DNA from: Escherichia phage vB_EcoM_Goslar
Sequence record: NC_048170.1
DNA: 64,000 nucleotides
Direction: 5' to 3' (one strand)
In this document: one piece after another, positions 5,235 to 55,285 of the stretch
Numbering within the stretch: the stretch's first letter is position 1
Layout of the letters: each line of letters starts with the position of its first letter
The notes under the pieces: model-generated
The model's input: the letters and a program-made list of their open reading frames with translations, nothing else
The model's database searches: none
What the model was told of the DNA's origin: nothing
Translations under genes and position numbers: made by a program

Positions 5235-7793
5235 TTACTGCTCTTCACGTTCCAGCAGATACTCGGAAGCGGTAATACCGTTTACCGTACGTACTGCTTT
5301 CAGACGAGTATCATCACTCAGAATCACGGTAACAGATTGCAGACCTTTTACTTTGGTTTCGAAGGTCTTGAACACCTGATCCAGCATACGAGCAATGCTT
5401 GGGTTGGTTGCAGCCGATGCGTGGGTGTAACCGCTTTGGTTCAGCTTCAGAATCTTGGCGTTGGTCGGTACGCGAACAACAACATGCGGACGCATCGCGA
5501 ATACGCTGTGATTGAACCAGTAAGCGTCGTTACTATCTTCGTCGGTAACGATGTCTGGATTAACACGCATATCCTCGACAGCCGCATCCGCCAAACGACG
5601 TTCGATTTCATCGGCGTCCAGAGAGCCATCTTTCTCCAGTTCTGCACGATACTCACTCATGGCAACCAGATGACGTTCACGATTCGCTGCGGATTTTTCG
5701 TGAGCGGCTTTCAGGTAGTCATGCATGTTGTACAGTTCTGCCATGGAAAGACGAATGTTCCACTGACCTTCGCCATCGCGATTGCAGTAGAGACACTTCA
5801 GCATGTTGACCCAGGTATAGTAGCAATTGGCGAATTCATCTTCAATGAACTTCTGGTCCATTTTAAGATCGTGAATCAGCCAACCGGACAGTTCTCCGAT
5901 ATCATCAACGAAGCTAGAGATGGTGGTTTCAGAGAAGTTCTTCGGTACGATACGTTTGATCAGCTTATTGACGTCTTTGGTCATGCTATCGTTCAGGAAA
6001 TGCCAGATACGCAGAGGAATGACATCTCGATACTGTTGCATGATCTGACGATAAGCTTTGATATCGTCGCTACGACCTTTATCAATAGACAACGCATCCA
6101 GGAATTCATGGATTGCATCCAGCTCTTTGTCGGTATAGGTTCCCAGATAGGAATTGACGGTGGCCAGGAATGCTAATGCGTCGTTTTGGTTGACGTCGGT
6201 GTTGGTCTGCTGAATGATCGCCACTGCAGCTTTAGTTTCAGCATCCTCAACGCTTGACGCTGCGATCGCGTCGGTGACGGTAAACAGTTTCATTTCGCGC
6301 TGCTCACCGACAACGATTGGCTCACGCTGAACCGGCTTGTTAAGACTAACGCGAACAACTTCTGCTTGCGCGATACGATCCAGTTTTGCCATTTCCTGCT
6401 CTGCCATACGACGAGCGGTTGGATCTGATTCAAGTTCGATGTATTCCACTTCTTCCTCCGTGAGGGATGTAATGTCAACAATGGTTTCATGAAGAATTCC
6501 GTTTTCGTCGATACGTGCTCGACGAGCGAAGTGCCTGAAGTCATACAACGTCGGCCAACGACTATTAGGTGCAAAGTCTTTGGCTTTCAGACGCATCTGC
6601 ATAAATTCTTCATGTTGAACAACACGACCGTAACGCTTAGCATCTTCGGTCGCATCAATTGGATTAACGGTCTTTGTTGCCGTAGCGGAACGAGCCGTAC
6701 GAACCGGTTCCGGTTTCACCTGCGCCGGTTCAGGTTGAACGGGTTTCTGCTGTCCAGCCTTAACATGCCATTCTGGCTCTTCGTACTGTTCAGCAAATTG
6801 CTCAGCCGCTGCAAAGATATCGTTGATACCACCAATATCTCCTTCAGGATTTGTCGAGTAAATCCGTGGTTGCGGTGCCTCGTAACGCGGCGCTGTAGCA
6901 GCAGGTGCCTCATCAACGATAGGATCATCATCACCGACATCATACAAACGGTTGAACGCACAATCCTTCGAATCAATGTACGATGGTGTTTGTGGTTGGA
7001 CAACCGTAGGCCGAGGTTGTGTGCCGTATCCTGGTGTTGTTGGAGCCATACCACGCATAACTGCTGGGTTAGGTTGGTATTGTGGTTGTGGGTAGGTTCC
7101 ACCATACATGGCGTACGCAGGCTGTTGTGGTTGACCATACCCGTTGCTAACCATCGCACTTGCTTGCGGCCCACGATAAGTCATCCCCATCTGCATCACC
7201 TGCTGCTTCAAACCACGTGACTTCTGCGCGATTTGCGCTAGGCTTCCGCTTTTATTCAGCTGCGTGTACTTATTCGCGGCTTCCGGGTTAATGCGTGATA
7301 ATTCAATCGCGCGATAATATTCCGGGTACTGATTCGGTTCAAAGAGCCACGTTACAAGATGATACAGCGCAACTGTACTCACGGCAGCAGAGACGATCTG
7401 GTCGTCGGACGCGTTCTGTGGCATCGGGTTGATGTAAGAGAACACGTTCCAACAACAGTCTTCAACAAGCGATTCCATCATCATATCGTTATTGGTATAA
7501 CGTGCGACGAACTCGGTTTGTATTTTGTCTTGCTGAGCGAAGTCTTTCAGGACATTAAAGATGGCTTGACGGATTTTGACGATCGTCGCTTCTTGGGTGA
7601 TGAAGTTATAGTTCTGCTGATATGAGGGTTGTTGGTATTGTGGTGGTTGATAGGCGTTATTCGGGTATGCGCCGTACGGCGATTGCTGATACTGTTGCTG
7701 ACGAACCTGTTCAGCCGCATAATTAATCGTGCTCGTATAAGGGTTTTCGCTATAGCCCATTTGTTGATACATGTTGTTACTGCCATTATACAT
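5235..7793 (-). CDS. hypothetical protein (852 aa) with Q/Y/P-rich low-complexity N-terminus
   Basis: ORF track; ATG with AAAGGA upstream; N-terminal about 60 aa dominated by Q, Y, P, N; second QPQY-rich stretch mid-protein. Confidence 0.8.
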   Translation of the reverse strand: MYNGSNNMYQQMGYSENPYTSTINYAAEQVRQQQYQQSPYGAYPNNAYQPPQYQQPSYQQNYNFITQEATIVKIRQAIFNVLKDFAQQDKIQTEFVARYTNNDMMMESLVEDCCWNVFSYINPMPQNASDDQIVSAAVSTVALYHLVTWLFEPNQYPEYYRAIELSRINPEAANKYTQLNKSGSLAQIAQKSRGLKQQVMQMGMTYRGPQASAMVSNGYGQPQQPAYAMYGGTYPQPQYQPNPAVMRGMAPTTPGYGTQPRPTVVQPQTPSYIDSKDCAFNRLYDVGDDDPIVDEAPAATAPRYEAPQPRIYSTNPEGDIGGINDIFAAAEQFAEQYEEPEWHVKAGQQKPVQPEPAQVKPEPVRTARSATATKTVNPIDATEDAKRYGRVVQHEEFMQMRLKAKDFAPNSRWPTLYDFRHFARRARIDENGILHETIVDITSLTEEEVEYIELESDPTARRMAEQEMAKLDRIAQAEVVRVSLNKPVQREPIVVGEQREMKLFTVTDAIAASSVEDAETKAAVAIIQQTNTDVNQNDALAFLATVNSYLGTYTDKELDAIHEFLDALSIDKGRSDDIKAYRQIMQQYRDVIPLRIWHFLNDSMTKDVNKLIKRIVPKNFSETTISSFVDDIGELSGWLIHDLKMDQKFIEDEFANCYYTWVNMLKCLYCNRDGEGQWNIRLSMAELYNMHDYLKAAHEKSAANRERHLVAMSEYRAELEKDGSLDADEIERRLADAAVEDMRVNPDIVTDEDSNDAYWFNHSVFAMRPHVVVRVPTNAKILKLNQSGYTHASAATNPSIARMLDQVFKTFETKVKGLQSVTVILSDDTRLKAVRTVNGITASEYLLEREEQ

Positions 7794-7827: not shown

Positions 7828-9624
7828 TCAATCGATTATGTCGCGATCGTTAATTTCTACAATTTCTTCATCGAATCGACCGACGTCTTTCTTCAAGCCT
7901 GCATTGGTTGCTGCAACGTCATTTGCAATTTGTGGGGTAATGATTAACCGACCGCGCTCATCGATAGGTGCGTACATACTGAACTTCTGACGTCCGGTTG
8001 GTTCGGAGTGTGGAAGATTCAGATAGCTTGCACAGAACGGGATGGAACCACTAACCAAACGACTCTCGTCAGCCAATGCAGCACCGCCTGCGTTTTGGCT
8101 CTGGAGAACAACATGCGTGCTCACTTTGAACAGCATGCAATCACCAGGTGACTGAATCGATGTTGCCACTTTCTCACGTTTATCACGATTGCTCTGGATA
8201 TTGAGAATCGCTTCCGTTGCAACTTGATTTCGCAACGCCTTCTGTACATCGCGATTGGTCATCTCTTTACGGTTGTTCTGTCGTTTACCACGTTCTGTGG
8301 TTTTAAGATGGAACCCCAGTTTAAAGATGCTCTTACGCACATCCTCCATGACATATTCCAACACCATCAATTCCTTACCGAACATCGTCGTGGTATCAAC
8401 ACGACTCATTTCGATAGTGACATTGTCAATCAGATACGCCATAAATTCGTAGAAGTCGTCGCAAGGAATATTTTCCTGTTTGAACTTCTTCTGTTGAATC
8501 TCGTCAACGTAAAGATCGAGACTGTCGATGTGGTGGTTTACATCACGCAACAAACGCGCATCCGCATTGTTGTTATTAAAGATAATCAAACCGAGTAATG
8601 TACGCCAATGGTCTGGCGCATTCGCGAACTCCTCAACCGGATAGTCTTCCGGAAAACGATCGTAATAACGGTCGATGAGATACAAGAATGCACCGACAAG
8701 GCCAAGAACAATACGTTCCGTGCCTCCACGTCTTACAGCAATTTGAATATCAGGATGTTTGTAACGTACAGCGCTAGCGCTACGGCTTTTACCGCTTTTG
8801 CTGATACTAAAGCCTTTAGGAATAACCCCCATGGTGCGATAGATTACCCATTGGTCACGCGGAAAATCACGTTCAGCAAGGTTCCGTCCGGTTACGGCTT
8901 CGACACCTGCAAAACGTCGGAAACACTCACCCACCCCGTACTTCGCAAAGAGATAGTGACCCAGTGTGGTTACGCTGGTGTGGTTGATGTTGTCACCGTT
9001 CACTTTACTTTGTTTAGTAAGATGATAGATTTGCGACCAGGGTAATGACAGGTAATGACGATAATCGATACCGGTCGGTGTATCATTGCTCAGGAACTGA
9101 TACGGTGTACGTTTAACCGTGATTTTGTCACGCGGAAGCATGATGAACGCCATGTCTTTCGTGTAACTGATTACGGGGTCAGCGAGTACCGCACTGAGAA
9201 TGAAGTTCGCACCACGTAGACGCATTTTACCACCCTGACCTACCGCGGGCAATAGGAGAGGATGTCGGATAATGCAGTAGTCCTTTCCTGGTTCACGACG
9301 GTCACCTGATTCCATCGCGCCGTACCAGCGGAATTCCAGCATCACCATAAACACATCGGAAGGCGCAAGGTCGAAGGTCAGCTTACCGCTATCCTTCCCT
9401 TTGGTTTTCTTTCCTCCGCTTAAGTAGTGGAACTGTTCGCGGGCCATACAACGACGCAGGCCATGATACACCAGATCCTTAGGTAAACTATCTTTGCTGT
9501 TCCGCCAAAGACGATCAACATAGGACTCAACATCTTGCATCTTATCGACGACGATGTTGCGTGCTATCTTCTCGTTCATCTTCGGTGCAAGCTCAGCGAC
9601 AGCTTTGCAGAATCTAGGATCCAT
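7828..9624 (-). CDS. hypothetical protein (about 598 aa)
   Basis: ORF track frame; track start 9627 is GTG, adjacent ATG at 9624 has AAGGAG 6 nt upstream. Confidence 0.8.
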   Translation of the reverse strand: MDPRFCKAVAELAPKMNEKIARNIVVDKMQDVESYVDRLWRNSKDSLPKDLVYHGLRRCMAREQFHYLSGGKKTKGKDSGKLTFDLAPSDVFMVMLEFRWYGAMESGDRREPGKDYCIIRHPLLLPAVGQGGKMRLRGANFILSAVLADPVISYTKDMAFIMLPRDKITVKRTPYQFLSNDTPTGIDYRHYLSLPWSQIYHLTKQSKVNGDNINHTSVTTLGHYLFAKYGVGECFRRFAGVEAVTGRNLAERDFPRDQWVIYRTMGVIPKGFSISKSGKSRSASAVRYKHPDIQIAVRRGGTERIVLGLVGAFLYLIDRYYDRFPEDYPVEEFANAPDHWRTLLGLIIFNNNNADARLLRDVNHHIDSLDLYVDEIQQKKFKQENIPCDDFYEFMAYLIDNVTIEMSRVDTTTMFGKELMVLEYVMEDVRKSIFKLGFHLKTTERGKRQNNRKEMTNRDVQKALRNQVATEAILNIQSNRDKREKVATSIQSPGDCMLFKVSTHVVLQSQNAGGAALADESRLVSGSIPFCASYLNLPHSEPTGRQKFSMYAPIDERGRLIITPQIANDVAATNAGLKKDVGRFDEEIVEINDRDIID

Positions 9625-9663: not shown

Positions 9664-11100
9664 TTACTTTTTCGATGACGCCTTCTCAAGAATCTTGAAA
9701 AAGGTCATACCTATACCGACAACAGCCGCGGTTATACTCGCAGCGGCTTTCCAAACATCGACGTTACGTTGACGTCGCGCTTCTTCCGCTTCACGTTGTC
9801 TTTTTGCCTCTTCATCACGTCGACGTATCTCAGCCGCAAACTCGTCATGCTTACGTTTGGCTTCTTCGTCTCGACGACGAAGTTCAGCGACGAATTCTTC
9901 ATGTTTGCGTTTAGCCTCGTCGTCACGACGTTTTAAATCAGCTTGATAATCTTCGTGTATTTGTCTACGTAGATCATCTTGACGTTTCATTTCGGCTTGG
10001 TGTTGTTCCATCCTACGTTTTTGTTCGTCTTTAAGCTGATCGAGTTCGGCTTTATGTTGTTCATCACGCAGCTTTGCGTCGGCGCGATGCGCCTCATGCA
10101 TCTGTGCGATAACTGCCTTGTGTTCATCCGCCATACGTCGCATTTCAGCCATCACCCCTTTAAGGGTTTCTTCTGATGCCTTACGTTCGTAGCTACGTTG
10201 GTCGAAATCATTTTTGTAGGCTTCTTTTTGGATGGGGTCGCGCCAATGCAATGCCGATTCACGCGTCGGAAAAACATTGTACTTCCACATCTCTTTTTCC
10301 AAATCTTCGACCGGTACGAAGACGGAGTCATTATTCCCGAAGGTAACCAACATACCTGGCGCGCCTGCTCCATTCGTTGGTTTTATTTCGAACGCTTTCC
10401 CCAACACGTTAACCCATAAGCTATACGGATTATGAAAGTCGGGCGGCGTCCAATGGATAGTGAGTTGCGTTCCGAGAATCCGGAAACCCTCTGTTTTTCC
10501 CGTCAAGCTCCGCGCGCACGTTGCGATGTAGGGGTGATCAATCCCTTTCGTAACGTGGTCTGCGCTTTTGTATTCTCCTTTAACTTTTACGATTGCCACG
10601 TTGATTTGCGCGACATAAGCGGGTTGATTAAAGTTCAACGTGTTGAGGTCAATTTGACATATTTCATCCAGCGTATCGTACCAGTCTTGCTGGTCTAATA
10701 GACGCGGCATTTTCTCTGTGTTAACAATACGACGGATATGCGGTTTCCTTATCGCGTAACCTGTGCCGTTTTTAACACGGAGTATATCCCGACGTCTACC
10801 CGCGTAGACGAAGTTTCTGAATGCACCATTCGCATTAGATACGTCATGGCTGTCAACTATTACAGGACTACGAAATTTTGAACGTCGTACGATCCTGAAT
10901 GTATTGCCGTCCTCAACCCTACCAGGAATGTACTGGAACATATTGTCGGAGGTGATAACCAACACGGTATGGCCAGATTCATTAATACATGCCCATCCTA
11001 ATTCCAGGTCATATAACGGTTCAGCATAACCGTCAATGCGATATGCGTGCGTACCATCCCACGGTTCGAACGCAGTATCACATATTGGCATGGAGGGCAT
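9664..11100 (-). CDS. hypothetical protein with charged tandem-repeat helix and C-terminal transmembrane anchor
   Basis: ORF track frame; track start is TTG, ATG at 11100 has GGAGG 6 nt upstream; three 18-aa repeats (RRRDEEAKRKH-EF-AE); hydrophobic segment AAASITAAVVGIGMTFF then KK at C-terminus. Confidence 0.8.
   Translation of the reverse strand: MPSMPICDTAFEPWDGTHAYRIDGYAEPLYDLELGWACINESGHTVLVITSDNMFQYIPGRVEDGNTFRIVRRSKFRSPVIVDSHDVSNANGAFRNFVYAGRRRDILRVKNGTGYAIRKPHIRRIVNTEKMPRLLDQQDWYDTLDEICQIDLNTLNFNQPAYVAQINVAIVKVKGEYKSADHVTKGIDHPYIATCARSLTGKTEGFRILGTQLTIHWTPPDFHNPYSLWVNVLGKAFEIKPTNGAGAPGMLVTFGNNDSVFVPVEDLEKEMWKYNVFPTRESALHWRDPIQKEAYKNDFDQRSYERKASEETLKGVMAEMRRMADEHKAVIAQMHEAHRADAKLRDEQHKAELDQLKDEQKRRMEQHQAEMKRQDDLRRQIHEDYQADLKRRDDEAKRKHEEFVAELRRRDEEAKRKHDEFAAEIRRRDEEAKRQREAEEARRQRNVDVWKAAASITAAVVGIGMTFFKILEKASSKK
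9775..9936 (-). repeat. 3 x 54-nt in-frame tandem repeat encoding the charged 18-aa repeats
   Basis: Direct codon-by-codon reading of 9664..9940; repeat units 9775..9828, 9829..9882, 9883..9936. Confidence 0.8.
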
Positions 11101-11253
11101 CGTCAACCTCCATCAGATTGAAAACTATCACGCATAATACATTTCCCTTTTTCTTGTTCTTATCAAGCCGACAGCCGACGGTTTCAGCATCGTTCCTAGC
11201 GCGAGAACGACCTTACGTGTTGTCTATGCCTTATTCATCGCAGGCGTCTGTCA

Positions 11254-11280
11254 CCTAGGTAATGTAAGCGTCAAATTTTT
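11254..11280. promoter_or_regulatory. copy of conserved intergenic motif cctaggtaatgta (candidate promoter element for gene starting at 11100)
   Basis: Shares ctaggtaatgta core with copies at 17721 and 54693; lies between a hairpin and the next minus-strand gene. Confidence 0.35.
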
Positions 11281-11309
11281 TCTATTCGCAACGATAAACG
11301 GCATAGAAA

Positions 11310-11339
11310 CCTCCCCCAACCCTTACGGGCTGAGGGAGG
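11310..11339. terminator. GC-rich hairpin (cctccc ... gggagg) downstream of major structural gene
   Basis: Inverted repeat with inner ccc-ttac-ggg; about 100 nt 3' of stop at 11439 on minus strand. Confidence 0.5.
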
Positions 11340-11438
11340 CTGACTTATGTATCACGGTGCCGGATGAATGTCCGGTGCAATGAAACCATCTGCAACGTTG
11401 TCATCAAGAATATCATCCAACGAAGCAGCTACGGTAGT

Positions 11439-13661
11439 TCAGTTAGTCTGAACCGGCAGCTTGATGTTTTCAGTGTAGACCTTACGCAGGTTCACAACGT
11501 TAATCAGACCCAGCAGCGGGCAGTTGTTAACGAAGCGGCAGCGCGGCTGAACCATGGTTTCTTTAGAAACCTGACCGTTACGGGTAACCTGAGCAACAGA
11601 TACCAGTTCCGGTACATACAGGAACATACCGAAGGTCAGCGGATCCGGAGAACCCTGGATACCACGAGACAGGGTCACGAAGATCTTATCGCGCAGCATG
11701 ACGTTCGGGTTATCTACAACCACGAAGTTGAAGCTTACACCAACGGTACGGAAATCGCCATCGGTCTGCAGGAACTGCGGGATGTAGTTGTCAGTTGCTA
11801 CTACGCAACGCGGTTTCTCATCAGCGTTGGAAGACAGCAGCTGCAGAGCTGGCTGATAACCAGACTCGGAGTACATGCGGTATGCCATCTCACGAATCAC
11901 GTTCATGATCGCAGCAGACACTTCAGCACGACGTTCTGCAGTGGTGGTACCCTGAACAGATTTCTCCAGGTCCAGATTGATTTCTTCGAACCACGGACGG
12001 ATCAGGTAACGACCGAAACCTTCGATCTGGATGTCACCGAACTGACGGAAGCGAGAGGTCGCAACCGCTTTCAGTGCGTCTTTGTAGCTGAACAGTTTCT
12101 CAACCATCAGGTTGTCGAAACGTGCGTTAGCAGCTTGGATCAGAACGTCCAGGTCAGCAGCGTTTTCTTCCCAATCCAGCGGACGAGGAATGGAGAACGG
12201 AGCCAGCAGGCCGATTGCGTAACGTTCTTGCTTCATGTTGAAGTCAAGGTGCTTACCGCGCTCACGACGGTTGCTGTTGTTACGACGGATACGCAGTTCG
12301 TAACCAACCAGTTTGAAGCTCAGGTCTTCAGCCAGTTGTTTGAACTCTTCGCTCTTACGCGGTTGTTCGATGTTGTCCTGATCAACCAGGCGATACAGTT
12401 CAGCGTTAGCGCCGTTAACACGCAGACCCGCTTTCTCTACGTTGGAAGAACCGTAAACTTCGATCGCCAGCTGAGCAGCGGATTTCGCATCGATGATGTC
12501 CTGCAGCGCTTCGGCTTTCGCACCTTTAACGTCTTTGGTGTTCTCATCAACGAAGATGGAGTGGGTGTCGAACGCCAGGGTCATTTTGCGGAAGTCGCCT
12601 TCCAGGGATTTCTGGAAACCGTTGGTGATCAGACCAGATACGTCGAACGGTACGTAAGAGGTTTTGCTGTGCTTGGTAGATTTGATTTCCACCAGGATTT
12701 TGGTCAGCGTGATCTGAGCATCCAGCGCGTCGGTGTTGTCGCTGTAACCGTTAGCCAGAATGCTGTCGTCTTCAGCGATACCGATCATGTCGATCAGTTT
12801 ATCAACAGCCAGGTAAGACGTTTTATAAGTTACGCCTTTAATTTCGATGTCGCGCGGAGCAACGATAGCTTTGTCAACGAAGTACTGCGCGTTAGCATCG
12901 TCAGCACGATAGATCGGATGCAGATCGGTCACGTCGTTGGACAGAACGTCGTTATACATGAACGCATCCAGCAGCGGACGACGTACCCAATCAGCCGGAG
13001 TACCGTCAGCGTTACGACGCAGGTGGTTGAACACCAGCGGACGACGGAAAGATACGTCGTAACCGATCTGGTTCGGAGCCAGAACGATGGTGTTGTACAG
13101 TTCGTTACCCATGCGGCTCAGACGAGAAGCCTTCACGTTGAACACGACGGAGTACGGCATCATGTCACGCAGTTCTTTCTGGTCGTAGGACAGCTGAACC
13201 AGTTCTTCAGATTCGCAACCGCAGGAATCAGCAGCCATCATGACGAAGTTAGAGCTGTCAACTTCACGACCTGACGGAGTGGTGCTGATGTTCATGGAAC
13301 GTGCTTGTTTAGCATATTCTACCGGGTTGCCATGAGCCAGCATGATCAGTGCTGCTGCACGAGCCTGCTGTGCGTTCATGGTGAACAGCTGTTCTTCAAT
13401 ACGCTGCTTCTCTTCCGGAGTGGTGGTTTCGAAGCCCAGCAAGGTCAGAACCGGTTCTTCGGCTTTACGGATGTCGCTGCTGAAGCTCTTAACATCCATT
13501 TCGTTAACCAGTTTGTCCATGGATTTGAAATCAACCTTAGAAGCAGATTCCATAGACAGGAAGGTGTTCTCCAGACCTTTGTCTGCTGGTTTGCTACCAT
13601 TAGCGGTCAGGAACTGGCGAGTGGCCGCGACCTGTTGGCTAAGAAGGGTTTTATCATTCAT
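11439..13661 (-). CDS. major virion structural protein, putative major capsid protein (740 aa); tail sheath is the alternative
   Basis: ORF track; ATG with AAGGA 8 nt upstream; strongly optimised codon usage (CTG, CGT, GGT, AAC, TTC, GAA) unlike neighbours; size matches phiKZ-type capsid proteins (recalled, not searched); 149-nt leader. Confidence 0.6.
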   Translation of the reverse strand: MNDKTLLSQQVAATRQFLTANGSKPADKGLENTFLSMESASKVDFKSMDKLVNEMDVKSFSSDIRKAEEPVLTLLGFETTTPEEKQRIEEQLFTMNAQQARAAALIMLAHGNPVEYAKQARSMNISTTPSGREVDSSNFVMMAADSCGCESEELVQLSYDQKELRDMMPYSVVFNVKASRLSRMGNELYNTIVLAPNQIGYDVSFRRPLVFNHLRRNADGTPADWVRRPLLDAFMYNDVLSNDVTDLHPIYRADDANAQYFVDKAIVAPRDIEIKGVTYKTSYLAVDKLIDMIGIAEDDSILANGYSDNTDALDAQITLTKILVEIKSTKHSKTSYVPFDVSGLITNGFQKSLEGDFRKMTLAFDTHSIFVDENTKDVKGAKAEALQDIIDAKSAAQLAIEVYGSSNVEKAGLRVNGANAELYRLVDQDNIEQPRKSEEFKQLAEDLSFKLVGYELRIRRNNSNRRERGKHLDFNMKQERYAIGLLAPFSIPRPLDWEENAADLDVLIQAANARFDNLMVEKLFSYKDALKAVATSRFRQFGDIQIEGFGRYLIRPWFEEINLDLEKSVQGTTTAERRAEVSAAIMNVIREMAYRMYSESGYQPALQLLSSNADEKPRCVVATDNYIPQFLQTDGDFRTVGVSFNFVVVDNPNVMLRDKIFVTLSRGIQGSPDPLTFGMFLYVPELVSVAQVTRNGQVSKETMVQPRCRFVNNCPLLGLINVVNLRKVYTENIKLPVQTN

Positions 13662-17513: not shown

Positions 17514-17720
17514 CGTATTTTTACCTTTCTATGTTAGGTGGATTGCGGATAGAAGAATCAATGCATAGATTGATCGTTCTATGTTAGAAATTATTGCCGA
17601 ACTGGTTATGGTTATAACGCGTGTTTTCGTATTCTGACGGGTCGCGTATTAATAAGGTCATGACTGTATCCTCGATTATTAAGAGAAATTTACAACGATA
17701 ACAGTAACCGCTGTTATCAT

Positions 17721-17748
17721 CTAGGTAATGTAGTCGCGAAATAAACTG
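17721..17748. promoter_or_regulatory. conserved 28-bp intergenic motif ctaggtaatgtagtcgcgaaataaactg (copy 1)
   Basis: 26/28 identical to 54694..54721; both lie about 25 nt from a hairpin, upstream of the next minus-strand gene. Confidence 0.4.
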
Positions 17749-17775
17749 GAGTAATGCGAAATAAGACAGCATAAG

Positions 17776-17807
17776 CCCTCTCCCAACCCGTAAGGGAAGG
17801 GAGAGGG
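17776..17807. terminator. GC-rich hairpin ccctctccc-aa-ccc-GTAA-ggg-aa-gggagaggg
   Basis: Perfect stems, GNRA loop; 5 nt 3' of stop of gene 17812..19179. Confidence 0.6.
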
Positions 17808-17811
17808 AATA

Positions 17812-19179
17812 TTAAACGGTTGGACGAACGGTGTTGTCTTTTTCTGGTGCAAGCCATAACGTGACCGTACCATGGCATGTCCACTGTGGTTCACGTACAG
17901 AAGAACCTGCCATCGTAACAGCACAATCGGTACGCATGATAACCCCGTATGCTTCGCAGAGATTGTTATCCTGCATCCACACAACTTTAGCAGGCATGCC
18001 GGGATACAACAAATCCATGTTTGCGTATTCCCACACCAACTGCATTGTTCTACCGCGTAATCCAGCAGTATTGCTTAATTCACGCCATCGGTTATCGGTT
18101 ACGCGTCCCATCCCTTTCGCCACCTTCACGTTATCGCCACGTTCTTCAGTTACGTACTCGCTAACGTTTACAGTACGACTGATTATTGTATCGCCCCCTT
18201 TTGATAACGTCATTCCCTGGCTCATCTGACTTGCCGAAACAAAACGCCCACCCGCATTACCTAACAACGAAGCCGCGTTATTGATGTCGCTTACCGACGC
18301 CCCTCTCGTACATGCAATTTCCACGTATTTGTCACGATTGATCCAGGTCTTGTCCATGCCCGGAAACATATCGGCAGGATAGTTGTAAAAGATAGCCGTG
18401 CGCCGACCATCAGAAAAACGGGTTTCGTCATAGAGAGGATAAATATACAGATACGGAGATTGATAATAACAACCGACGTCCGCTGAATAAATACCGACCT
18501 GGTTCTGGATTTTGTCTACGAGATCCATTGCGTTGGTACCGTGCGGAAGAATAAGCAACTTGAACAGGTTGTCGTTATTCGGTGCAACAATATCCACACC
18601 CTGCATTTTGAATCCGGTGTCAGCTTCAACCGCAGAAAGTATCTTGCTGAATTCGAGCCGTAACACATCCAGCACTTTCGACCCGGTATAGTTCTCACCG
18701 GTTTCTGATTGCATGAAGCTTTCAAGAACAGGATCGAACAGTTGAAATTGAAGGTCGACCATTTGTTCGTAGTCTTTCTTCGAAGAATCGGTTGCGGTAC
18801 GTTCGTCGGTAGCAGACATACGACTGTCTACGGTTGTTAAACAAACCGCCCGGTAGACATAAGCCTGTGTGGCATCGTCTACGGTTTGGCGTTGTCCACG
18901 CATCAGGCTGTACGCCTGCACGATGATGCGCATTTTAAGTTGTTGTTGGTACGGTAGAATGTATTTTCCGTAACTGCCGGGCGGGAACTTTACAGAGATA
19001 TAAAGTTCATCTCCTGCGTTACGTTCATAGTCTCGATACGTGTGGACTTGAGTCACTAAAGGAACAGACACCGTCATTGACGGCGTGATTAATTCCGCGG
19101 TGACTTTATACGCAACAGCAACTGCTTCCTGCGCAAATGTACCGATATACCGTCCTAACGGCGTCTGTTTGTAATCCAT
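17812..19179 (-). CDS. hypothetical virion protein (455 aa)
   Basis: ORF track; ATG start. Confidence 0.8.
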   Translation of the reverse strand: MDYKQTPLGRYIGTFAQEAVAVAYKVTAELITPSMTVSVPLVTQVHTYRDYERNAGDELYISVKFPPGSYGKYILPYQQQLKMRIIVQAYSLMRGQRQTVDDATQAYVYRAVCLTTVDSRMSATDERTATDSSKKDYEQMVDLQFQLFDPVLESFMQSETGENYTGSKVLDVLRLEFSKILSAVEADTGFKMQGVDIVAPNNDNLFKLLILPHGTNAMDLVDKIQNQVGIYSADVGCYYQSPYLYIYPLYDETRFSDGRRTAIFYNYPADMFPGMDKTWINRDKYVEIACTRGASVSDINNAASLLGNAGGRFVSASQMSQGMTLSKGGDTIISRTVNVSEYVTEERGDNVKVAKGMGRVTDNRWRELSNTAGLRGRTMQLVWEYANMDLLYPGMPAKVVWMQDNNLCEAYGVIMRTDCAVTMAGSSVREPQWTCHGTVTLWLAPEKDNTVRPTV

Positions 19180-23028: not shown

Positions 23029-23080
23029 CGCAGATTCCTGTTTGAAAGATAAGATATCACATGATGGTCGACAGCATAAA

Positions 23081-23100
23081 GCCCACCCCGAAGGGCGGGC
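23081..23100. terminator. GC-rich hairpin gcccaccc-cgaa-gggcgggc flanked by gcataaa / tttatgc arms
   Basis: Inverted repeat 3' of stop of gene 23117..26494; outer arms are also reverse complements. Confidence 0.5.
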
Positions 23101-26509: not shown

Positions 26510-27616
26510 TTAAAAGTAATATTTCAGCGCCTCGCGAGAGACATCAAGCATAGCCGCTGTTGAATTCGTAAAGAACTCGGCATAGCCCACAAGCGGCACC
26601 TTGATCCACGCGGTATACGCTGTAAGGTATCGAGAAAGGGCTACCATAGCATCATCAGAAGCAGTAGTAACTGACAACTGACCTTGTTGACGATAAACGT
26701 CGTTAAGTTTTGCTTGTAGATTCCCTGCGATTTCGAGTAACTCGTTGGCGTACTTTTTACGATGGTAACTAACCAGCAAATCAACACCCGTATTTACAGA
26801 CTCGAGTAGAAGACCAACTTGTTCTAATGTTGGCATTGTAACCACCATATCCCGTTCAACGGATGGGACATCCTGGACTTCAAACCGTGCGGATTGAATG
26901 GCGAGGGACTGTTGAATTGATCCAGAACCTGAAGCGGTAACTTGATCGAGTCGTAGCATACGGTTGCCCAGTAACGTCACGTTGACGAGTTTCGATTCGT
27001 TCAGCGTACTGTAGACTTTATGCAATAACGTATACGCATCACGGTTAATCACATCGATTAATGCGGTATCCGTCTGTTTTAAGATAATGTCGAGTGCTCT
27101 ATCTAACGTATTAGCGAACTGCTTAAAATCATCACGGAACGACGAAGACAAGAGATATTCAGCGATCGCTAAATTCTGTTTGTATAACGTATTCCCGGTT
27201 GTGAAATCGAACCCAAAACTGTTCCCATACCGTAGGTGCGGAGCCAACGTCGACGAAGCTTCGAAGCTTTGCGCGATAGGTTTACGACCAACGGCTTTTG
27301 TGTAGTGACGGCGGATGTTGCTGAGTTCGAGCTGTAGTGCGCGACTACGATCGATAAACCGTGCGATAAACGCGGTAATGTTCCGCAACGTTGTCCAGAT
27401 TGCATCGATGATAGCTTTGATGATCTTCATCGCAAGTTGATCGTACGATTCCATTGTGAGGAGATCAGCACTTTCCGTGGTATAACTGGTTGATAGCATA
27501 CCACCCGCTTGCTGATAAATAAGCTGGTGAATTTGTCGTTGCGTTGCTGTCTCTGGCACAGGTAATGTTTTTAACAAGCTTAACGCTTGAATCTGTCCAT
27601 CATTGGTCTGCAGCAT
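26510..27616 (-). CDS. head/internal protein paralog (family member E)
   Basis: ORF track frame; in-frame ATG at 27616 with GAGGAA upstream, overlapping upstream stop by 17 nt; motif ESYDQLAMKIIKAIIDAIW. Confidence 0.75.
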   Translation of the reverse strand: MLQTNDGQIQALSLLKTLPVPETATQRQIHQLIYQQAGGMLSTSYTTESADLLTMESYDQLAMKIIKAIIDAIWTTLRNITAFIARFIDRSRALQLELSNIRRHYTKAVGRKPIAQSFEASSTLAPHLRYGNSFGFDFTTGNTLYKQNLAIAEYLLSSSFRDDFKQFANTLDRALDIILKQTDTALIDVINRDAYTLLHKVYSTLNESKLVNVTLLGNRMLRLDQVTASGSGSIQQSLAIQSARFEVQDVPSVERDMVVTMPTLEQVGLLLESVNTGVDLLVSYHRKKYANELLEIAGNLQAKLNDVYRQQGQLSVTTASDDAMVALSRYLTAYTAWIKVPLVGYAEFFTNSTAAMLDVSREALKYYF

Positions 27617-28901
27617 TGCTGGTTTCCTCAAGTTCGAGATGCGCGTCAAGATAATCATTAAGACCATCGATGACGTCGCAGACAGTTAACAGGAATCGGG
27701 CAAAAGCAACCGCCTGGAAGCCGACGACGTTACGCGCGATACCCACGCGTTGAACGATAGCGGATGCTGCGGTATCGTTATTGCCCATCTGTTGTAGCAA
27801 ACGTTCATACGGTTGAATCCATTCGTCCTGGTCGGCAAGGCTTGCTTCAAGACAACGTTTAAATTCCAACTGTCGTAGCGTAGACCATAACGTACTTAAT
27901 GCGTTGATGATCGCGTTGGTTCCGTCGATAACATCGTTTAACGGTAAGAAACGGAATCCGTCTTTTGCTGATTGGAAAGGTGCGGCTTCCCACACAACGC
28001 TGAACTGCGTTCCTGTTGCGTCTTCGATGTTGTGTAATTTAAGATAGGAAGCACCAACAGGAACGTCAACGACCAGATCGTCTGTTCCGGTAGGTGTTAA
28101 CGGCTTCTCGCATAACGCCTCGTTGATGGCCTCGAGAATATTCTCCCAACAGGCTTCGTTTTCCGCAGCGATACCTTCTTTGTTATCCGCTGATGGTGCT
28201 TTTAGTAGCTGCATTAATAACGGATCAAGTTGACGGTGCCATGCTGCGAGGATTCCTGTGTTCGTTACGATGTTTTCTGCGGTTTGTCGTAAATCAGCAA
28301 TACTGCTTACCGCACCGCCTTTCGGATGGAGATATCGCCAGTTGTAGGGAAAGTTCTCCCAGAATGCGTTATCTTCATCGACGTCGTATTCGGAAATAGT
28401 TTTCAACGCAGCCGCTTTCTTTAATAACGGCTTCACCTGACGAACGAATCGACGATAACAGCGATTGCAGATATCGATCGCATAGCGGTATAATTCGTTC
28501 ATGTAAAGCCATAATGCACGGGTTGCTTCTTTTGCTGTCTTGTCAAAACTTTCCATGTTCAGACTCATCCCGCTGGAAGTTTCCTCTTCCAGACCCTCGA
28601 TGATGTGGTTTGGATCCATCCCCATCCCGGCTGCTGCGGTCGATGCGATATGTTTGATGGTGTTGATATCGCGTTCCTCGACTTCAGCCATGTTTGGGAC
28701 AATATCCAGCCTGAGTTTATTTAATGTTTGAAGGTGTTGTTCACCTTCTTTCATCGCCGTGTTTGTTTCGTCGATTGAGTGAAACTGATTCTCAATATTA
28801 CTGGCATCGAGAATGTTGCCAGCGATACCGAACGATTCTACAGGTTCATCATCAATCCCTTGAAACAACGATGTCATGGGTTGTTGTAACACGTTTTCCA
28901 T
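27600..28901 (-). CDS. head/internal protein paralog (family member C, 433 aa)
   Basis: ORF track; ATG with AGGAG 7 nt upstream; acidic N-terminal region; HIASTAAAGMGM and ESF...ALWLYM motifs shared with neighbours. Confidence 0.8.
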   Translation of the reverse strand: MENVLQQPMTSLFQGIDDEPVESFGIAGNILDASNIENQFHSIDETNTAMKEGEQHLQTLNKLRLDIVPNMAEVEERDINTIKHIASTAAAGMGMDPNHIIEGLEEETSSGMSLNMESFDKTAKEATRALWLYMNELYRYAIDICNRCYRRFVRQVKPLLKKAAALKTISEYDVDEDNAFWENFPYNWRYLHPKGGAVSSIADLRQTAENIVTNTGILAAWHRQLDPLLMQLLKAPSADNKEGIAAENEACWENILEAINEALCEKPLTPTGTDDLVVDVPVGASYLKLHNIEDATGTQFSVVWEAAPFQSAKDGFRFLPLNDVIDGTNAIINALSTLWSTLRQLEFKRCLEASLADQDEWIQPYERLLQQMGNNDTAASAIVQRVGIARNVVGFQAVAFARFLLTVCDVIDGLNDYLDAHLELEETSNAADQ

Positions 28902-29008
28902 TTGGGACTCCTACGTAGGAAAATCTTGGCGGGTGATCATGTCCGCCATTTACCTTCTGAACCGTTGATTCAGAAGTCAAAAGATAACCGGATACCAACG
29001 CCATAAAA

Positions 29009-29040
29009 CCTTCCTCCAACCCGTAAGGGAAGGAGGAAGG
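29009..29040. terminator. GC-rich hairpin ccttcctcc-aa-ccc-GTAA-ggg-aa-ggaggaagg
   Basis: Perfect stems; 3' of stop of gene 29051..30340. Confidence 0.6.
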
Positions 29041-29050
29041 GATATAGTGG

Positions 29051-30340
29051 TTATGCTTTTTCGGTTACAGCATCGAAGTATTTCGCTGCAGCAAATACGG
29101 CATCCGCATATTGACGGTTAGCAACACGGAGGATCTTAGCTGCTAATACCGCACTCAAGAGCGCCATTTCAGAAATGGCGCTTATATAAGGGCGAACGGT
29201 TTCACGATCTGCTTCCGGTAGATTGTCGAGCATACCGTCCCATTTGGTTTTAATTTTCATACCGTTCAGTTTAGCGGTACGTTCGACAGTACTCGTTAAA
29301 CTTTCCGTCTGGTTAAAATACGCAGGGTCAACAATACGAAACGCGTTAAGATACGAAGTCAGTGCGGCTTTCAATTCGTCGTCGTTATTGAAAATGTTCG
29401 CGTTTTCGATACTACCAGTCGCGGTTTCTTCCACTTCGATCTGAATATTCTTCACGAGCGCGCAGGCCTTAATGGTATCTTTCTCAGCCATAAGAGCGTC
29501 AAGACCTTTAACAACATATCGTTTCCCACCGCTTTCTGGTATTTTGAGTCCTTTTAACGCGGGCTTGATGGCGTAAATATAGTCGTCCAGAATATCGGCA
29601 AGTGTCGTCAAATCGGTTAGTTTATTAACTTTCTTGTTAATGTCGTCGGTTTGGAGTAGTAAAAAAGAGGATGCTTGTGTGGATGCCGCTAACTGCTCAA
29701 TATGTTTACGGACCTCCAACGCGTTAACTGTTTTTGCGTTAGGGAACATGCTAATCATATTCCCGGTCGGTTTATTTAGTTGTTTGATGTGACGCTCGCC
29801 TTTATTTACAGCGGTTGCAACATCGGTAATTTTTTTATACGCTACCGCAAGGTTTTTGAAAAGCAGCTGAATCAGTTTACATAACTGTTCAGCCATGTTC
29901 GCAATGATTACCCAAACTGCGTATAGCGCTTGTGCTGCGCGTTCTTTAAAGCCTTCCAGTACGATAGCCTGCCCTTCCACCAAACGATCGTCAGCTTGGA
30001 ACATGTCTTCATCAGACATCCCCAGGTTAGCTGCTGACGTCGAAGCAATCTGGCGGATAAGGGCGATGTCGCTCGCACGTGCTTCAGGGATCGTAGGTGC
30101 GATCATGTACGCGGTATCTTCCAGCGTTGCTGAGGTACGCACCGCAATTTCAGCCAGTTCGCTGGATTCGTCGATCGTCTCGTCGGTGCGTCGAATCACC
30201 AACTCAACTTCGTCCTCTTCAATTTCTGCGTTAGGATCGTTCTGCTCCGCTGGAATTGCCGCAAGAAGATCTTCGGCGCTGAGCAGTGCGAGTTCGAATG
30301 CGTTTTTATTGACGTTATCAAAAAGAGAAATGCGGGCCAT
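29051..30340 (-). CDS. head/internal protein paralog (family member B, 429 aa)
   Basis: ORF track; ATG with AAGGAA upstream; TIPEARASDIALIRQIASTSAANLGM and VLEGFKE motifs aligned with gene 30350..31666. Confidence 0.8.
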   Translation of the reverse strand: MARISLFDNVNKNAFELALLSAEDLLAAIPAEQNDPNAEIEEDEVELVIRRTDETIDESSELAEIAVRTSATLEDTAYMIAPTIPEARASDIALIRQIASTSAANLGMSDEDMFQADDRLVEGQAIVLEGFKERAAQALYAVWVIIANMAEQLCKLIQLLFKNLAVAYKKITDVATAVNKGERHIKQLNKPTGNMISMFPNAKTVNALEVRKHIEQLAASTQASSFLLLQTDDINKKVNKLTDLTTLADILDDYIYAIKPALKGLKIPESGGKRYVVKGLDALMAEKDTIKACALVKNIQIEVEETATGSIENANIFNNDDELKAALTSYLNAFRIVDPAYFNQTESLTSTVERTAKLNGMKIKTKWDGMLDNLPEADRETVRPYISAISEMALLSAVLAAKILRVANRQYADAVFAAAKYFDAVTEKA

Positions 30341-30349
30341 GTTAGTTCC

Positions 30350-31666
30350 TTAACCTTTGGTATAAGCGTTAACGAGAGTGTTGATAAATGAAGTCAGTGC
30401 GCGAAGATACTGGTAAGCGAATTGGTTTTCAATACGGTTCTCTTTACCGCAAAGCAGAATCGCACGCTTAACGAGTTTAGGATAGATCTCGACATACGGT
30501 TGGTAGCTTGCATCAAAATTCTGCTCGTTGAAGCGTTTCATGGTGATTTCCTGGATACGCTCCATGGTGCGAATTTTATTGCGAGAGAATATCTCAGAGA
30601 AAGCACGTCCGCGTTTTGTTACCATCAACAAATCTTTCGCGAACGTCAGTTGTCGAACGCTACGTAATTCGTCAGGTGTTGGCAGGACATACGTTTCTGG
30701 ATCGTTATCCCATTCAACATCTTCAACGATAATATCCAAGTCGAGGTAACGTTTAACAGCATCGATGATGTTGTCTTTTGACGCATCGAATTCTTTCAAG
30801 AAGACTGCGCCGTTGATGTAGCGGATGCGTTTCCCAGAAACTGTTGGGGTGATAACATCAGCACCTTCCACGGAACCGCGATTTTCCAGTGTCGATTTGA
30901 CAGCGTGCAAGAAAGACAGATAATCAACAGGAAGTTTTTCAACCTTATCTAAATGGAAGTCGATGATGTTTAATCCTAACCCATCAATAACTGAATAGCC
31001 GTCCGATTTAAGGAACATCTGATTGAAGGTATCGATGTTGCTTTTCAGCGTGTCTACGCCACCAACGCTGTTACGGTTAGGGAAAAGTGTCCGCCACTCC
31101 GCTTTAAACGCAACCTCTTTATTTTCCTCGTATTTGCCTTTAGGCATTTGTTCGAGGTCTGCAACGGCTTTCTGAAAATTGCGCGTCTCGTCGTAAACAA
31201 GACGGGTAAGCTTCTCGAAGGCTGCTGCCAAGGTCAGGGCAATATCAACAATGATATCCCAGATCTTTTTCATGGCTTTTACAACGGTGTCCTTAAACCC
31301 CTCAACAACCAAAGCTTCTCCAACCTCAACACGATCGGTTGGCGTCAGCAATGCTTCGGAGGGTAGACCCAGAGCAATCGACGCGGATTCTTGAACGTTA
31401 CGAACCAACGCAACATCACTGTAGTTAGCCGATTCGATAGTCGGAGCAACATCAAAACTGATTTCCCGTAATGCAGCAACAGCAGGGAAAGCACGATCAA
31501 GCGCATCTTCATGTTCGTCGATTGCCGCCAAACGTAATTCGACGCCATCGGCATCGATGACTTCAGCGGCAGGCTCCACAGCAAGCGCCTCAGCAACAAT
31601 AGGATCTTTTTCAAACGCCTCAAGGCTGATATCGCCTTGGGTCGCAAATAGCGGTATGTGTACCAT
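30350..31666 (-). CDS. head/internal protein paralog (family member A, about 438 aa)
   Basis: ORF track frame; track start is TTG, ATG at 31666 has GGAG 8 nt upstream; TIESANYSDVALVRNVQESASIALGL and VVEGFKD motifs. Confidence 0.8.
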   Translation of the reverse strand: MVHIPLFATQGDISLEAFEKDPIVAEALAVEPAAEVIDADGVELRLAAIDEHEDALDRAFPAVAALREISFDVAPTIESANYSDVALVRNVQESASIALGLPSEALLTPTDRVEVGEALVVEGFKDTVVKAMKKIWDIIVDIALTLAAAFEKLTRLVYDETRNFQKAVADLEQMPKGKYEENKEVAFKAEWRTLFPNRNSVGGVDTLKSNIDTFNQMFLKSDGYSVIDGLGLNIIDFHLDKVEKLPVDYLSFLHAVKSTLENRGSVEGADVITPTVSGKRIRYINGAVFLKEFDASKDNIIDAVKRYLDLDIIVEDVEWDNDPETYVLPTPDELRSVRQLTFAKDLLMVTKRGRAFSEIFSRNKIRTMERIQEITMKRFNEQNFDASYQPYVEIYPKLVKRAILLCGKENRIENQFAYQYLRALTSFINTLVNAYTKG

Positions 31667-31714
31667 GTGTTGTCTCCAGTAATGATTCAAAAGATAAACC
31701 TGAGCGGCATAGAA

Positions 31715-31746
31715 CCCTCTCCCAACCCGTGAGGGAAGGGAGAGGG
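31715..31746. terminator. GC-rich hairpin ccctctccc-aa-ccc-GTGA-ggg-aa-gggagaggg
   Basis: Perfect stems with GNRA loop; 3' of stop of gene 31769..33091; followed on minus strand by ggttctatgccg. Confidence 0.6.
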
Positions 31747-31768
31747 AATATGTCAGTTTATTAACTGA

Positions 31769-54622: not shown

Positions 54623-54692
54623 CTCGACATCCTTTTATATTGGATTGATTGCAATTGTCTTAAATAGATGATAAGATATTTTGCTCTTATCA

Positions 54693-54721
54693 CTAAGGTA
54701 ATGTAGTCGTGAAATAAACTG
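54693..54721. promoter_or_regulatory. conserved 28-bp intergenic motif ctaaggtaatgtagtcgtgaaataaactg (copy 2)
   Basis: 26/28 identical to 17721..17748; about 70 nt upstream of ATG 54622 on minus strand. Confidence 0.4.
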
Positions 54722-54750
54722 CGTTAACAAGAAATAAAAACAGCATAGAA

Positions 54751-54790
54751 CCCTCCTCCCCCATCCTTCAAGAGGACGGTGGGAAGAGGG
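54751..54790. terminator. imperfect GC-rich hairpin ccctcctccc ... gggaagaggg
   Basis: Inverted repeat 3' of stop of gene 54798..55199. Confidence 0.45.
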
Positions 54791-54797
54791 AGAGAGA

Positions 54798-55199: not shown

Positions 55200-55253
55200 G
55201 GAGTGCTTTTCCTATTTTTATTTTCTGCACAGGATAAATTCAACGGCATAAAG

Positions 55254-55285
55254 CCCTTCCCTGCCCTTATATGGGGCGGGAAGAG
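55254..55285. terminator. imperfect GC-rich hairpin cccttccctgccc ... ggggcgggaag
   Basis: Inverted repeat flanked by gcataaa / tttatga arms. Confidence 0.4.

Follow-up and report, generated by a model that had tools for sequence, protein, structure and literature searches.

Between the genes for the major capsid protein (MCP) and a subunit of the non-virion RNA polymerase (nvRNAP) of Escherichia phage vB_EcoM_Goslar lies an open reading frame (ORF) for a 478-amino acid protein that joins a globular head to a long charged helix and a single C-terminal hydrophobic segment. The DNA analyzed here, which we call the window, is a stretch of 64,000 nucleotides (nt) from sequence record NC_048170.1, and the ORF occupies positions 9664..11100 on its minus strand, with the stop codon at 9664-9666. 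The start is the ATG at 11100 and not the TTG at 11106, because a Shine-Dalgarno GGAGG, read directly from the sequence (11107..11111, minus strand), stands 7 nt upstream of this ATG and because database homologs, 99% identical to the ORF product, are exactly 478 amino acids long. The upstream neighbor is the phiKZ-type MCP gene (11439..13661, minus strand; PF25620, E 5e-218), and the downstream neighbor, after a gap of 36-39 nt and with its own Shine-Dalgarno sequence, is the gene for an nvRNAP beta'-like subunit, the ortholog of phiKZ gp123 and Goslar gp039 (7828..9624, minus strand; phrog_2943, E 7e-120). The N-terminus of this downstream product agrees with the Goslar gp039 sequence given in the supplement of Prichard et al. 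2023 (PMC10299810), and this agreement, along with MCP and RNA polymerase subunits of phiKZ type, marks the phage as a Goslar-like chimallivirus.

On the evidence of the ORF list, of homologs of 460-507 amino acids, and of hhalign and BFVD Foldseek comparisons, the coding sequence is predicted to be the Goslar-clade ortholog of cg35, the Chimalliviridae core gene represented by phiKZ gp122, PhiPA3 gene 138, 201phi2-1 gp202, and Goslar gp040. The published core-gene table equates cg35 with Goslar gp040, phiKZ gp122, and RAY gp001, labels it “hypothetical,” and places it between cg34 (MCP) and cg36 (nvRNAP beta) (PMC10299810 supplement); it belongs to a core set of about 68-72 genes in the Chimalliviridae. 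As a catalogued core gene, cg35 is already known and hence no new family, but its conserved membrane-anchor-like C-terminus, its rod rich in glutamate and arginine or lysine (ER/K), and the modular 18-residue expansion of that rod in Goslar-type phages appear to be undescribed in the literature searched. Profile, fold, and synteny evidence agree on the assignment, and we consider both it and the protein architecture very likely to be correct.

PHROG profiles chain the family proteins through phrog_7727 (window protein E 3.8e-6), phrog_7286, and phrog_15024, and an hhalign profile comparison, restricted to the heads, between the window clade and the orthologs known from chimalliviruses gave a probability of 96.1%, E 2.9e-9, and 226 colinear columns. 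Foldseek with the head model against BFVD returned 29 matches with E<=1e-3, all of them uncharacterized chimallivirus proteins, including 201phi2-1 B3FJ64, Noxifer, Eowyn, and RP12. A mixed head profile built from the window clade with phiKZ, LucasX, and Xoo-sp14 detects the proteins of FLC9, RsoM3USA, Noxifer, and Eowyn, all 4 of which were left out of its alignment, even when the database size (Z) is set to 5.8e9. With LucasX, phiKZ, and Xoo-sp14 as targets, BLASTP and hhalign of single sequences gave marginal results, and homology was settled only by profile–profile comparison. A word-indexed search with the mixed alignment overlooked known members, which local re-scoring attributed to loss at candidate selection, the homology itself being present. 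When the head profile was run exhaustively with HMMER over 1.84 billion representatives, only 3 clusters were recovered, and the window protein's own clade is, as judged from such searches, tiny; Xoo-sp14 gp122 as a query gained just 3 further proteins. Megablast and tblastn of the ORF against the GenBank phage set gave no matches, and the nearest capsid protein to the window MCP in that set is merely 33% identical, so that Goslar-type phages seem to be absent from the set searched. As a separate observation, Goslar-type phage genomes occur as single 236-248 kb contigs in IMG/VR and in many assemblies of Escherichia coli, Salmonella, and Shigella isolates, which suggests that Goslar-type jumbo phages are frequently carried by clinical and food isolates or contaminate them.

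The gene order helicase (on the minus strand), small ORF, MCP, cg35, nvRNAP beta' is invariant in 11 phages (LucasX, Xoo-sp14, phiKZ, pEa_SNUABM_54, DT01, RsoM3USA, FLC9, Eowyn, Noxifer, RP31, and PhiPA3) and in a metagenomic relative, L014, and PhiPA3 gene 138 (YP_009217217.1) was confirmed as the phiKZ gp122 ortholog. In Pseudomonas chimalliviruses, the capsid gene and the gp122 ortholog are separated by an additional small ORF, namely phiKZ gp121 (L003 709-1161), PhiPA3 137 (L017 2499-3032), and Noxifer 123 (L012 5855-6301), which in phiKZ and PhiPA3 overlaps the start of the gp122 ortholog and which is missing from the window phage and most other members.

Residues 1 to ~288 (10237..11100, minus strand) make up the head, which alignments and AlphaFold2 (AF2) models depict as globular, beta-rich, and of mixed composition, although both models have low confidence here; a globular N-terminal region of about 290 residues had been proposed in a preliminary description of this locus that was made from the sequence alone. 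Family alignments show conserved motifs at N40-x-S-x-H44, I58-P59, and H189-P190, and further ones at LW.N.LGKA..I.PT.GAG.PG (228-249) and Y/F-G-x-F-x-T-x-E-x-A (274-283). A Pfam scan of the 478-amino acid protein found nothing above the curated cut-offs, as did a scan of the C-terminal parts of the family. In the PDB copies of 2026, sequence searches with the family gave zero matches, and Foldseek gave a best E of 0.69, with no relative among solved structures. The N-terminus, MPSMPICDTAFEPWDG, is not hydrophobic.

Beyond the head, AF2 with a 10-sequence alignment predicts a single uninterrupted helix over residues 289-475, with a predicted local distance difference test (pLDDT) score of 73-89 across residues 320-440, and it does not pack the C-terminal helix against the head. 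The AF2 helix and charge-pair statistics together define a charged linker at residues 289-448 (9757..10236, minus strand), which would be ~24-25 nm long if fully helical. Within this linker (~160-168 residues), 53% of residues are D, E, K, or R and 17% are hydrophobic; opposite-charge pairs at i/i+3 plus i/i+4 number 87 versus 44 ± 5 in shuffles (z = 8), and same-charge pairs at these spacings are rare. Such a pattern is the predicted signature of an ER/K single alpha-helix (SAH). The long, highly charged helix of the preliminary description is borne out computationally, and its repeat region is predicted to be helical rather than disordered.

The rod is periodic at the length of 5 helical turns. 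Lag-18 self-identity over residues 289-449 is 0.329, against a maximum over all lags of 0.234 in 10,000 composition-preserving shuffles, and the lag-18 statistics together with a register table resolve ~seven 18-residue (five-turn) units at residues 317-442 (9775..10152, minus strand), running from M317 to R442, each beginning with M, H, L, or I and mostly finishing in A-E or A-D. Since 18 residues amount to five turns of an alpha helix (18/3.6), equivalent residues align on one face every 2.7 nm. The tandem 18-residue periodicity noted previously thus stands, but the count of three units does not, nor does the description of the underlying 54-nt repeats as near-identical: the 3 best-kept units, residues 389-442 (9775..9936, minus strand; 9936-9883, 9882-9829, and 9828-9775), share 50-78% of their amino acids and 57-69% of their nucleotides. 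Neither Tandem Repeats Finder nor a direct-repeat finder run on the DNA reported 54-nt units at 9775..9936, because the copies have just 57-69% of bases in common, and from this nucleotide identity the 18-residue units are best read as old duplications kept similar in protein. Hydrophobic residues with a/d-like spacing lie in the first third of the linker (residues 313-372; up to 6 of 8 a/d positions per 28-residue window), and in the later units one seam position in each heptad is still apolar (L1, A8, F15).

The protein ends in an apolar, anchor-like segment, AAASITAAVVGIGMTFF (residues 452-468; 9697..9747, minus strand), marked out by hydrophobicity scales and the family alignment: 17 apolar residues with a G-x-G / small-xxx-small motif, flanked by lysines K451 and K469. 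Before it stands a juxtamembrane hinge, RQRNVDVWK, recognized in the C-terminal family alignment (residues 443-451; 9748..9774, minus strand), and after it, by translation, a short basic tail, KILEKASSKK (residues 469-478; 9667..9696, minus strand), such basic tails being found family-wide. AAASITAAVVGIGMTFF is the sole hydrophobic segment of the protein, with the best Kyte-Doolittle window at 453-471, a Kyte-Doolittle 19-residue mean of 1.76, an Eisenberg <H> of 0.63, and a muH of 0.29. Crude Hessa-type sums for transmembrane (TM) insertion give ~+2.8 kcal/mol for this segment versus +9.6 or more elsewhere in the protein. A lone hydrophobic segment no farther than ~30 residues from the C-terminus, with no other TM segment and no signal peptide, is the arrangement of a tail anchor, and the hydrophobicity of AAASITAAVVGIGMTFF would be typical of tail anchors. 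From this we infer that the C-terminal segment may insert into a membrane.

The plan of head, linker, and hydrophobic tail is kept in very divergent chimallivirus orthologs, the heads of which are 12-30% identical. Of the 14 family members examined, 12 share one pattern in their final ~30 residues, consisting of a hinge ([RK][RK][DN]-x2-3-[DE]-hydrophobic-hydrophobic-K), 16-17 apolar residues, a Lys, and a short basic tail; the apolar stretch often has P near its start and G-x-G-A in mid-segment. From head end to anchor, the linker varies from 61 amino acids in Eowyn to 197 in P0003, or 9-30 nm as helix, with the window protein at 168 amino acids and ~25 nm on the same measure. The overall architecture thus characterizes the family as a whole, which does not hold for the long repeat rod. 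It follows from this range of linker lengths that the molecular ruler, one of the roles originally envisaged, is unlikely in a strict, fixed-length form.

Among Goslar-type relatives, forms of 460, 478, 489, and 507 amino acids are separated by 2 distinct exact 18-amino acid indels and one 11-amino acid indel, with every 18-amino acid indel lying at repeat boundaries and flanked by repeated EQH(K/Q)AE or AE(I/L)KRR motifs. All complete members read in the 478-amino acid cluster have 478 amino acids, and the 489- and 507-amino acid forms both fall within a single cluster of at least 90% identity. Gain and loss of 18-residue units is, on this sequence comparison, real but infrequent. The comparison of copy number across relatives that the preliminary description had called for thus yields length forms in 18-residue steps, and its suggestion that the repeats are a hotspot of length variation holds insofar as relatives differ by exactly 18 residues but not in the sense of hypervariability, since the repeats have diverged in DNA and copy number is constant in the 478-amino acid lineage. 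The natural 460-, 478-, 489-, and 507-amino acid variants represent a ready-made linker-length series.

The position of the gene directly downstream of the major structural gene had initially suggested a role in assembly, but a terminator-like hairpin separates the two. This hairpin (11308..11341, minus strand) has a 15-bp stem followed by TTTCTATG, an RNA fold of -31.3 kcal/mol, and z = -6.3, and it leads directly into TTTCTATGCCG. Here the sequence pattern TATG (11302..11305, minus strand) matches the core of the phiKZ-type late nvRNAP promoter, for which the phiKZ consensus is T(-3)ATG(+1) (PMC7598289). The pattern GGKTYTATGSYG occurs 12 times in the window versus 2.9 ± 1.5 expected, and TATG directly after hairpins recurs in the window before late structural genes, including internal-head-protein paralogs. 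About 35 nt beyond the TATG is a conserved element, CTTACATTACCTAGGTGACA (11249..11268, minus strand; the part ACATTACCTAGGTGA at 11249-11265), a candidate second promoter, of early type, for the unit of the 478-amino acid gene and nvRNAP beta', on the grounds of its recurrence in the window and its exact conservation upstream of the ortholog in L014, a distant relative. Together these form a composite module, consisting of a GC-rich terminator hairpin, T(T/C)TATGC(C/T)G, a ~35 nt spacer, and (C)TACATTACCT(A/T)GGTGA, that is present three times in the window (11249-11341, 17690-17815, and 54660-54795, all on the minus strand). The copies at ~17.7 and ~54.7 kb stand before clusters of small ORFs, and the module is found almost letter-for-letter upstream of the ortholog in L014 (4605-4705), the head of which is ~30% identical.

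If these patterns are read correctly, the composite module is probably a terminator combined with 2 promoters, one of the late TATG type and one of a second class. Because of the terminator after the MCP gene, the conserved promoter-like module, and the gap of only 36-39 nt to the next gene, we place the 478-amino acid gene, by inference from sequence, in the nvRNAP-beta' transcription unit and not in the capsid unit, which weakens the argument from its position behind the major structural gene. The nvRNAP subunits of phiKZ are early gene products (PMC10612078), and the 478-amino acid gene may likewise be expressed early in addition to late. At other sites of the window, the hairpin-plus-TATG arrangement without the second motif occurs at 28999-29010, 31705-31716, 23072-23083, 55244-55255, and 63839-63850 (minus strand) before several genes, including an array of ~430-440-amino acid paralogs at 27600-33091, one of which matches “internal head protein” PHROGs. 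These sites are consistent with phiKZ-type late promoters set directly after terminators.

Comparison with better-known proteins places this architecture in context. The window protein resembles phiKZ gp122, PhiPA3 gene 138, 201phi2-1 gp202, and RAY gp001 in its homologous head, its position between MCP and nvRNAP beta', and its plan of head, linker, and C-terminal helix, but its linker is 2-3 times longer than in the phiKZ gp122 family (168 versus 61-103 amino acids) and is made of 18-residue modules, and it shares with most members a TM-like C-terminus where those of phiKZ and PhiPA3 are amphipathic. Tail-anchored inner-membrane proteins exist in bacteria, for example E. coli ElaB, YqjD, and YgaM (DUF883), in which the N-terminal part likewise lies in the cytoplasm and a helical stalk leads to a lone hydrophobic helix at the C-terminus with a very short basic tail; no sequence relationship to them was detected (no Pfam match), and the window protein differs in its unrelated head and much longer ER/K-rich stalk. 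ER/K SAH spacers, known from myosin VI and X and from caldesmon and serving as rulers when used as linkers, have in common with the rod more than 50% E, R, K, and D, a dense i to i+4 opposite-charge network, one predicted uninterrupted helix, and a length of 10-30 nm; unlike them, the rod has a strict 18-residue periodicity, a heptad seam (L1, A8, F15), and a more hydrophobic N-terminal third. In phi29 p16.7 and in golgin-type tethers, a membrane anchor and a coiled-coil spacer present a functional binding head that organizes viral or cellular assembly, a similar division of labor, but the polarity of p16.7 is opposite, its TM segment being N-terminal, and the window protein is homologous to neither. 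The i-spanins of lambda Rz type are likewise phage proteins in which a single TM segment is joined to an extended, charged helical region; however, theirs is an N-terminal TM segment with a periplasmic helix encoded in a lysis cassette, whereas the window protein has a C-terminal TM-like segment and no export signal. Its TM-like segment being C-terminal and its gene neighbors encoding capsid and RNA polymerase proteins, an i-spanin identity was considered and rejected, and phiKZ carries a separate Rz-like spanin, gp141 (phiKZ record).

The explanation that we find best, although we hold it tentatively and give it somewhat less than even chances, is a tail-anchored ER/K-rod tether that links a cytoplasmic phage assembly to a membrane; any specific function for the cg35 family is to be taken as between doubtful and tentative. 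The 478-amino acid protein would be made in the cytoplasm without a signal peptide, and its 17-residue apolar helix and basic tail would enter a lipid membrane from its cytoplasmic side or bind to that side; the membrane could be the inner membrane, the early-infection vesicle, or both. The stiff, salt-bridged ER/K-type helix, extended in the Goslar clade by 18-residue (five-turn, 2.7 nm) modules, would then keep the beta-rich head ~22-30 nm off the membrane (9-30 nm across the family). If the head binds a phage partner there, most likely the nuclear-shell and capsid-docking network of ChmA and ChmB, this binding would couple ChmA/ChmB assembly to the membrane. In some clades, the rod might be bound to the membrane peripherally rather than tail-anchored. 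The ChmA/ChmB network is the most likely ligand of the head in view of the work of Enustun et al. 2023 (PMC10643120), who detected PhiPA3 gene 138, a gene of no predicted function, by miniTurboID of ChmA as well as in pulldowns of ChmA-GFP and GFP-ChmB. This proximity to the shell also lends some support to the suggestion of the preliminary description that the protein may anchor a phage compartment or assembly, which is plausible. For phiKZ, Gerovac et al. 2025 (PMC12571901) list gene 122 as an uncharacterized core gene and report that antisense knock-down of gp122 had weak effects on PFU/CFU and on ChmA but, at 30 min, “strong effects on phage transcription.” Chimallivirus capsids, furthermore, assemble on the inner membrane (PMC12908238, PMC10299810). 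Searches of the literature on Goslar gp040, phiKZ gp122, 201phi2-1 gp202, and EPI-vesicle or transmembrane factors found no functional study.

Several observations count against such a tether. The PhiPA3 signal is weak, the ChmA pulldown having yielded 1 peptide and miniTurboID a low abundance (PMC10643120), and polarity on gp123, the start of which lies 10 nt downstream, could plausibly explain the phiKZ knock-down phenotype. No experiment in the literature searched shows membrane association of any family member. The C-termini of phiKZ gp122 and PhiPA3 gene 138 are amphipathic and not TM-like (Kyte-Doolittle 1.45, <H> 0.44-0.52); these helices end in basic residues, for example ...DSILEKLFKKR, and would fit peripheral rather than integral membrane binding. 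In the window protein, AAASITAAVVGIGMTFF is itself marginal as a translocon-type TM segment by crude scales (+2.8 kcal/mol, 17 apolar residues), so that of the C-terminal TM helix first proposed, the sole hydrophobic segment and the basic KK end stand while a strong TM segment does not. Heptad-like hydrophobic residues occupy the N-terminal third of the linker, so that the rod may in part form an oligomeric coiled coil instead of a single helix; the earlier likening to an SAH spacer is supported by the charge pattern, but the choice between the two states, which is read from model and composition, calls for caution on account of this seam.

Other explanations account for parts of this evidence. 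By analogy with T4 gp40 and initiation at membrane-bound gp20, and along the lines of the assembly role suggested in the preliminary description, the protein might be an anchor for procapsid assembly, a membrane-anchored rod that nucleates or holds portal/MCP initiation complexes at the inner membrane, where capsids do assemble (PMC12908238, PMC10299810). The gene family always adjoins the MCP gene, and ChmB, a portal-binding protein with capsid proteins among its pulldown partners, co-purifies with the PhiPA3 ortholog (PMC10643120). On the other hand, the strong terminator between the 2 genes, the operonic arrangement with a gene for an nvRNAP subunit, a class of protein that is early in phiKZ (PMC10612078), and a plaque phenotype of gp122 knock-down that is weak compared with that of MCP (+++) (PMC12571901) all speak against such an anchor, and a variable spacer of 9-30 nm is hard to square with partial capsids directly on the membrane; we consider it unlikely. 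The invariant tight coupling to the gp123 ortholog across the family, together with the strong perturbation of phage transcription at 30 min upon phiKZ gp122 knock-down, could instead indicate an nvRNAP-linked factor acting in assembly or delivery of the beta' fragment or at a membrane-proximal step before nuclear import, with an anchor that is incidental or regulatory. The transcription phenotype may, however, be polarity on gp123, and nvRNAP acts inside the nucleus, which would be closed to a membrane-anchored protein; we consider this idea a little less likely still.

A similarly low probability attaches to the idea that there is no lipid anchor at all and that the apolar G-x-G helix serves helix–helix packing, in a self-oligomer or in a lattice of ChmA type, so that the rod would be soluble or shell-bound. 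The marginal hydrophobicity and short 16-17-residue apolar stretch, the conserved small-residue motif, the amphipathic C-termini in phiKZ and PhiPA3, and the location of the PhiPA3 ortholog near the shell would all fit, but a Lys-flanked apolar stretch with a short basic tail is a classical tail-anchor signature, AF2 leaves the C-terminal helix unpacked against the head, and no other hydrophobic partner surface is evident. Charged helical proteins encoded beside capsid genes are often scaffolds, and several internal head protein paralogs are encoded in the window, which would be in keeping with a charged helix acting as a scaffold or inner-body component in the head. That identity was considered and rejected as very improbable: PHIKZ122 lacks the “structural protein” note that many neighboring genes carry in the phiKZ record, PDB sequence and fold searches (copies of 2026) turned up nothing related to the family, and the gene is listed as “uncharacterized” rather than as a virion protein (PMC12571901).

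Returning to the tail-anchored tether, its more specific and more ambitious form would make the cg35 family the missing connection by which the protein-based phage nucleus is physically joined to lipid membranes. Nucleus-forming jumbo phages go from a lipid vesicle to a protein shell and build their capsids on the inner membrane, and in the literature searched no phage-encoded membrane-anchored factor is assigned to the vesicle, shell, or capsid-assembly steps. If an early-made, tail-anchored rod were to bind ChmA/ChmB through its head, then it could act as a membrane-anchored spacer that sets shell nucleation on the early-infection vesicle or the docking of shell and capsids, with a length that evolves in 2.7-nm (18-residue) steps. 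We regard this full scheme as improbable as it stands. Until now an anonymous core gene, cg35 nevertheless becomes a concrete candidate, inexpensive to test, for a factor that couples to membranes during the life cycle of chimalliviruses, on the grounds of its core-gene status, its weak published links to the shell and to transcription, its conserved, predicted tail-anchor or membrane-targeting C-terminus, and its rod of tunable length.

The surroundings of the gene offer some further observations. A 636-amino acid ORF lies antisense to the major capsid gene (11364-13274, plus strand); it is almost certainly non-coding, an artefact of codon usage, and other large genes in the window are likewise overlapped by long antisense ORFs. 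At the position of phiKZ gp124, an 852-amino acid protein (5235-7793, minus strand) has a Q/Y/P/N-rich, prion-like N-terminus of ~250 amino acids (MYNGSNNMYQQMGYSENPY...QQYQQSPYGAYPNNAYQPPQYQQPSYQQNY) and a second Q/P-rich stretch, with no PHROG match and no significant Pfam match; knock-down of phiKZ gp124 also perturbs phage transcription (PMC12571901). Farther away, a DNA polymerase ORF (47690-49189, plus strand) spans only positions 5-494 of a 576-position PHROG profile and is followed directly by an HNH endonuclease ORF (49258-50469, plus strand), and this polymerase gene may be interrupted by a mobile endonuclease or intron.

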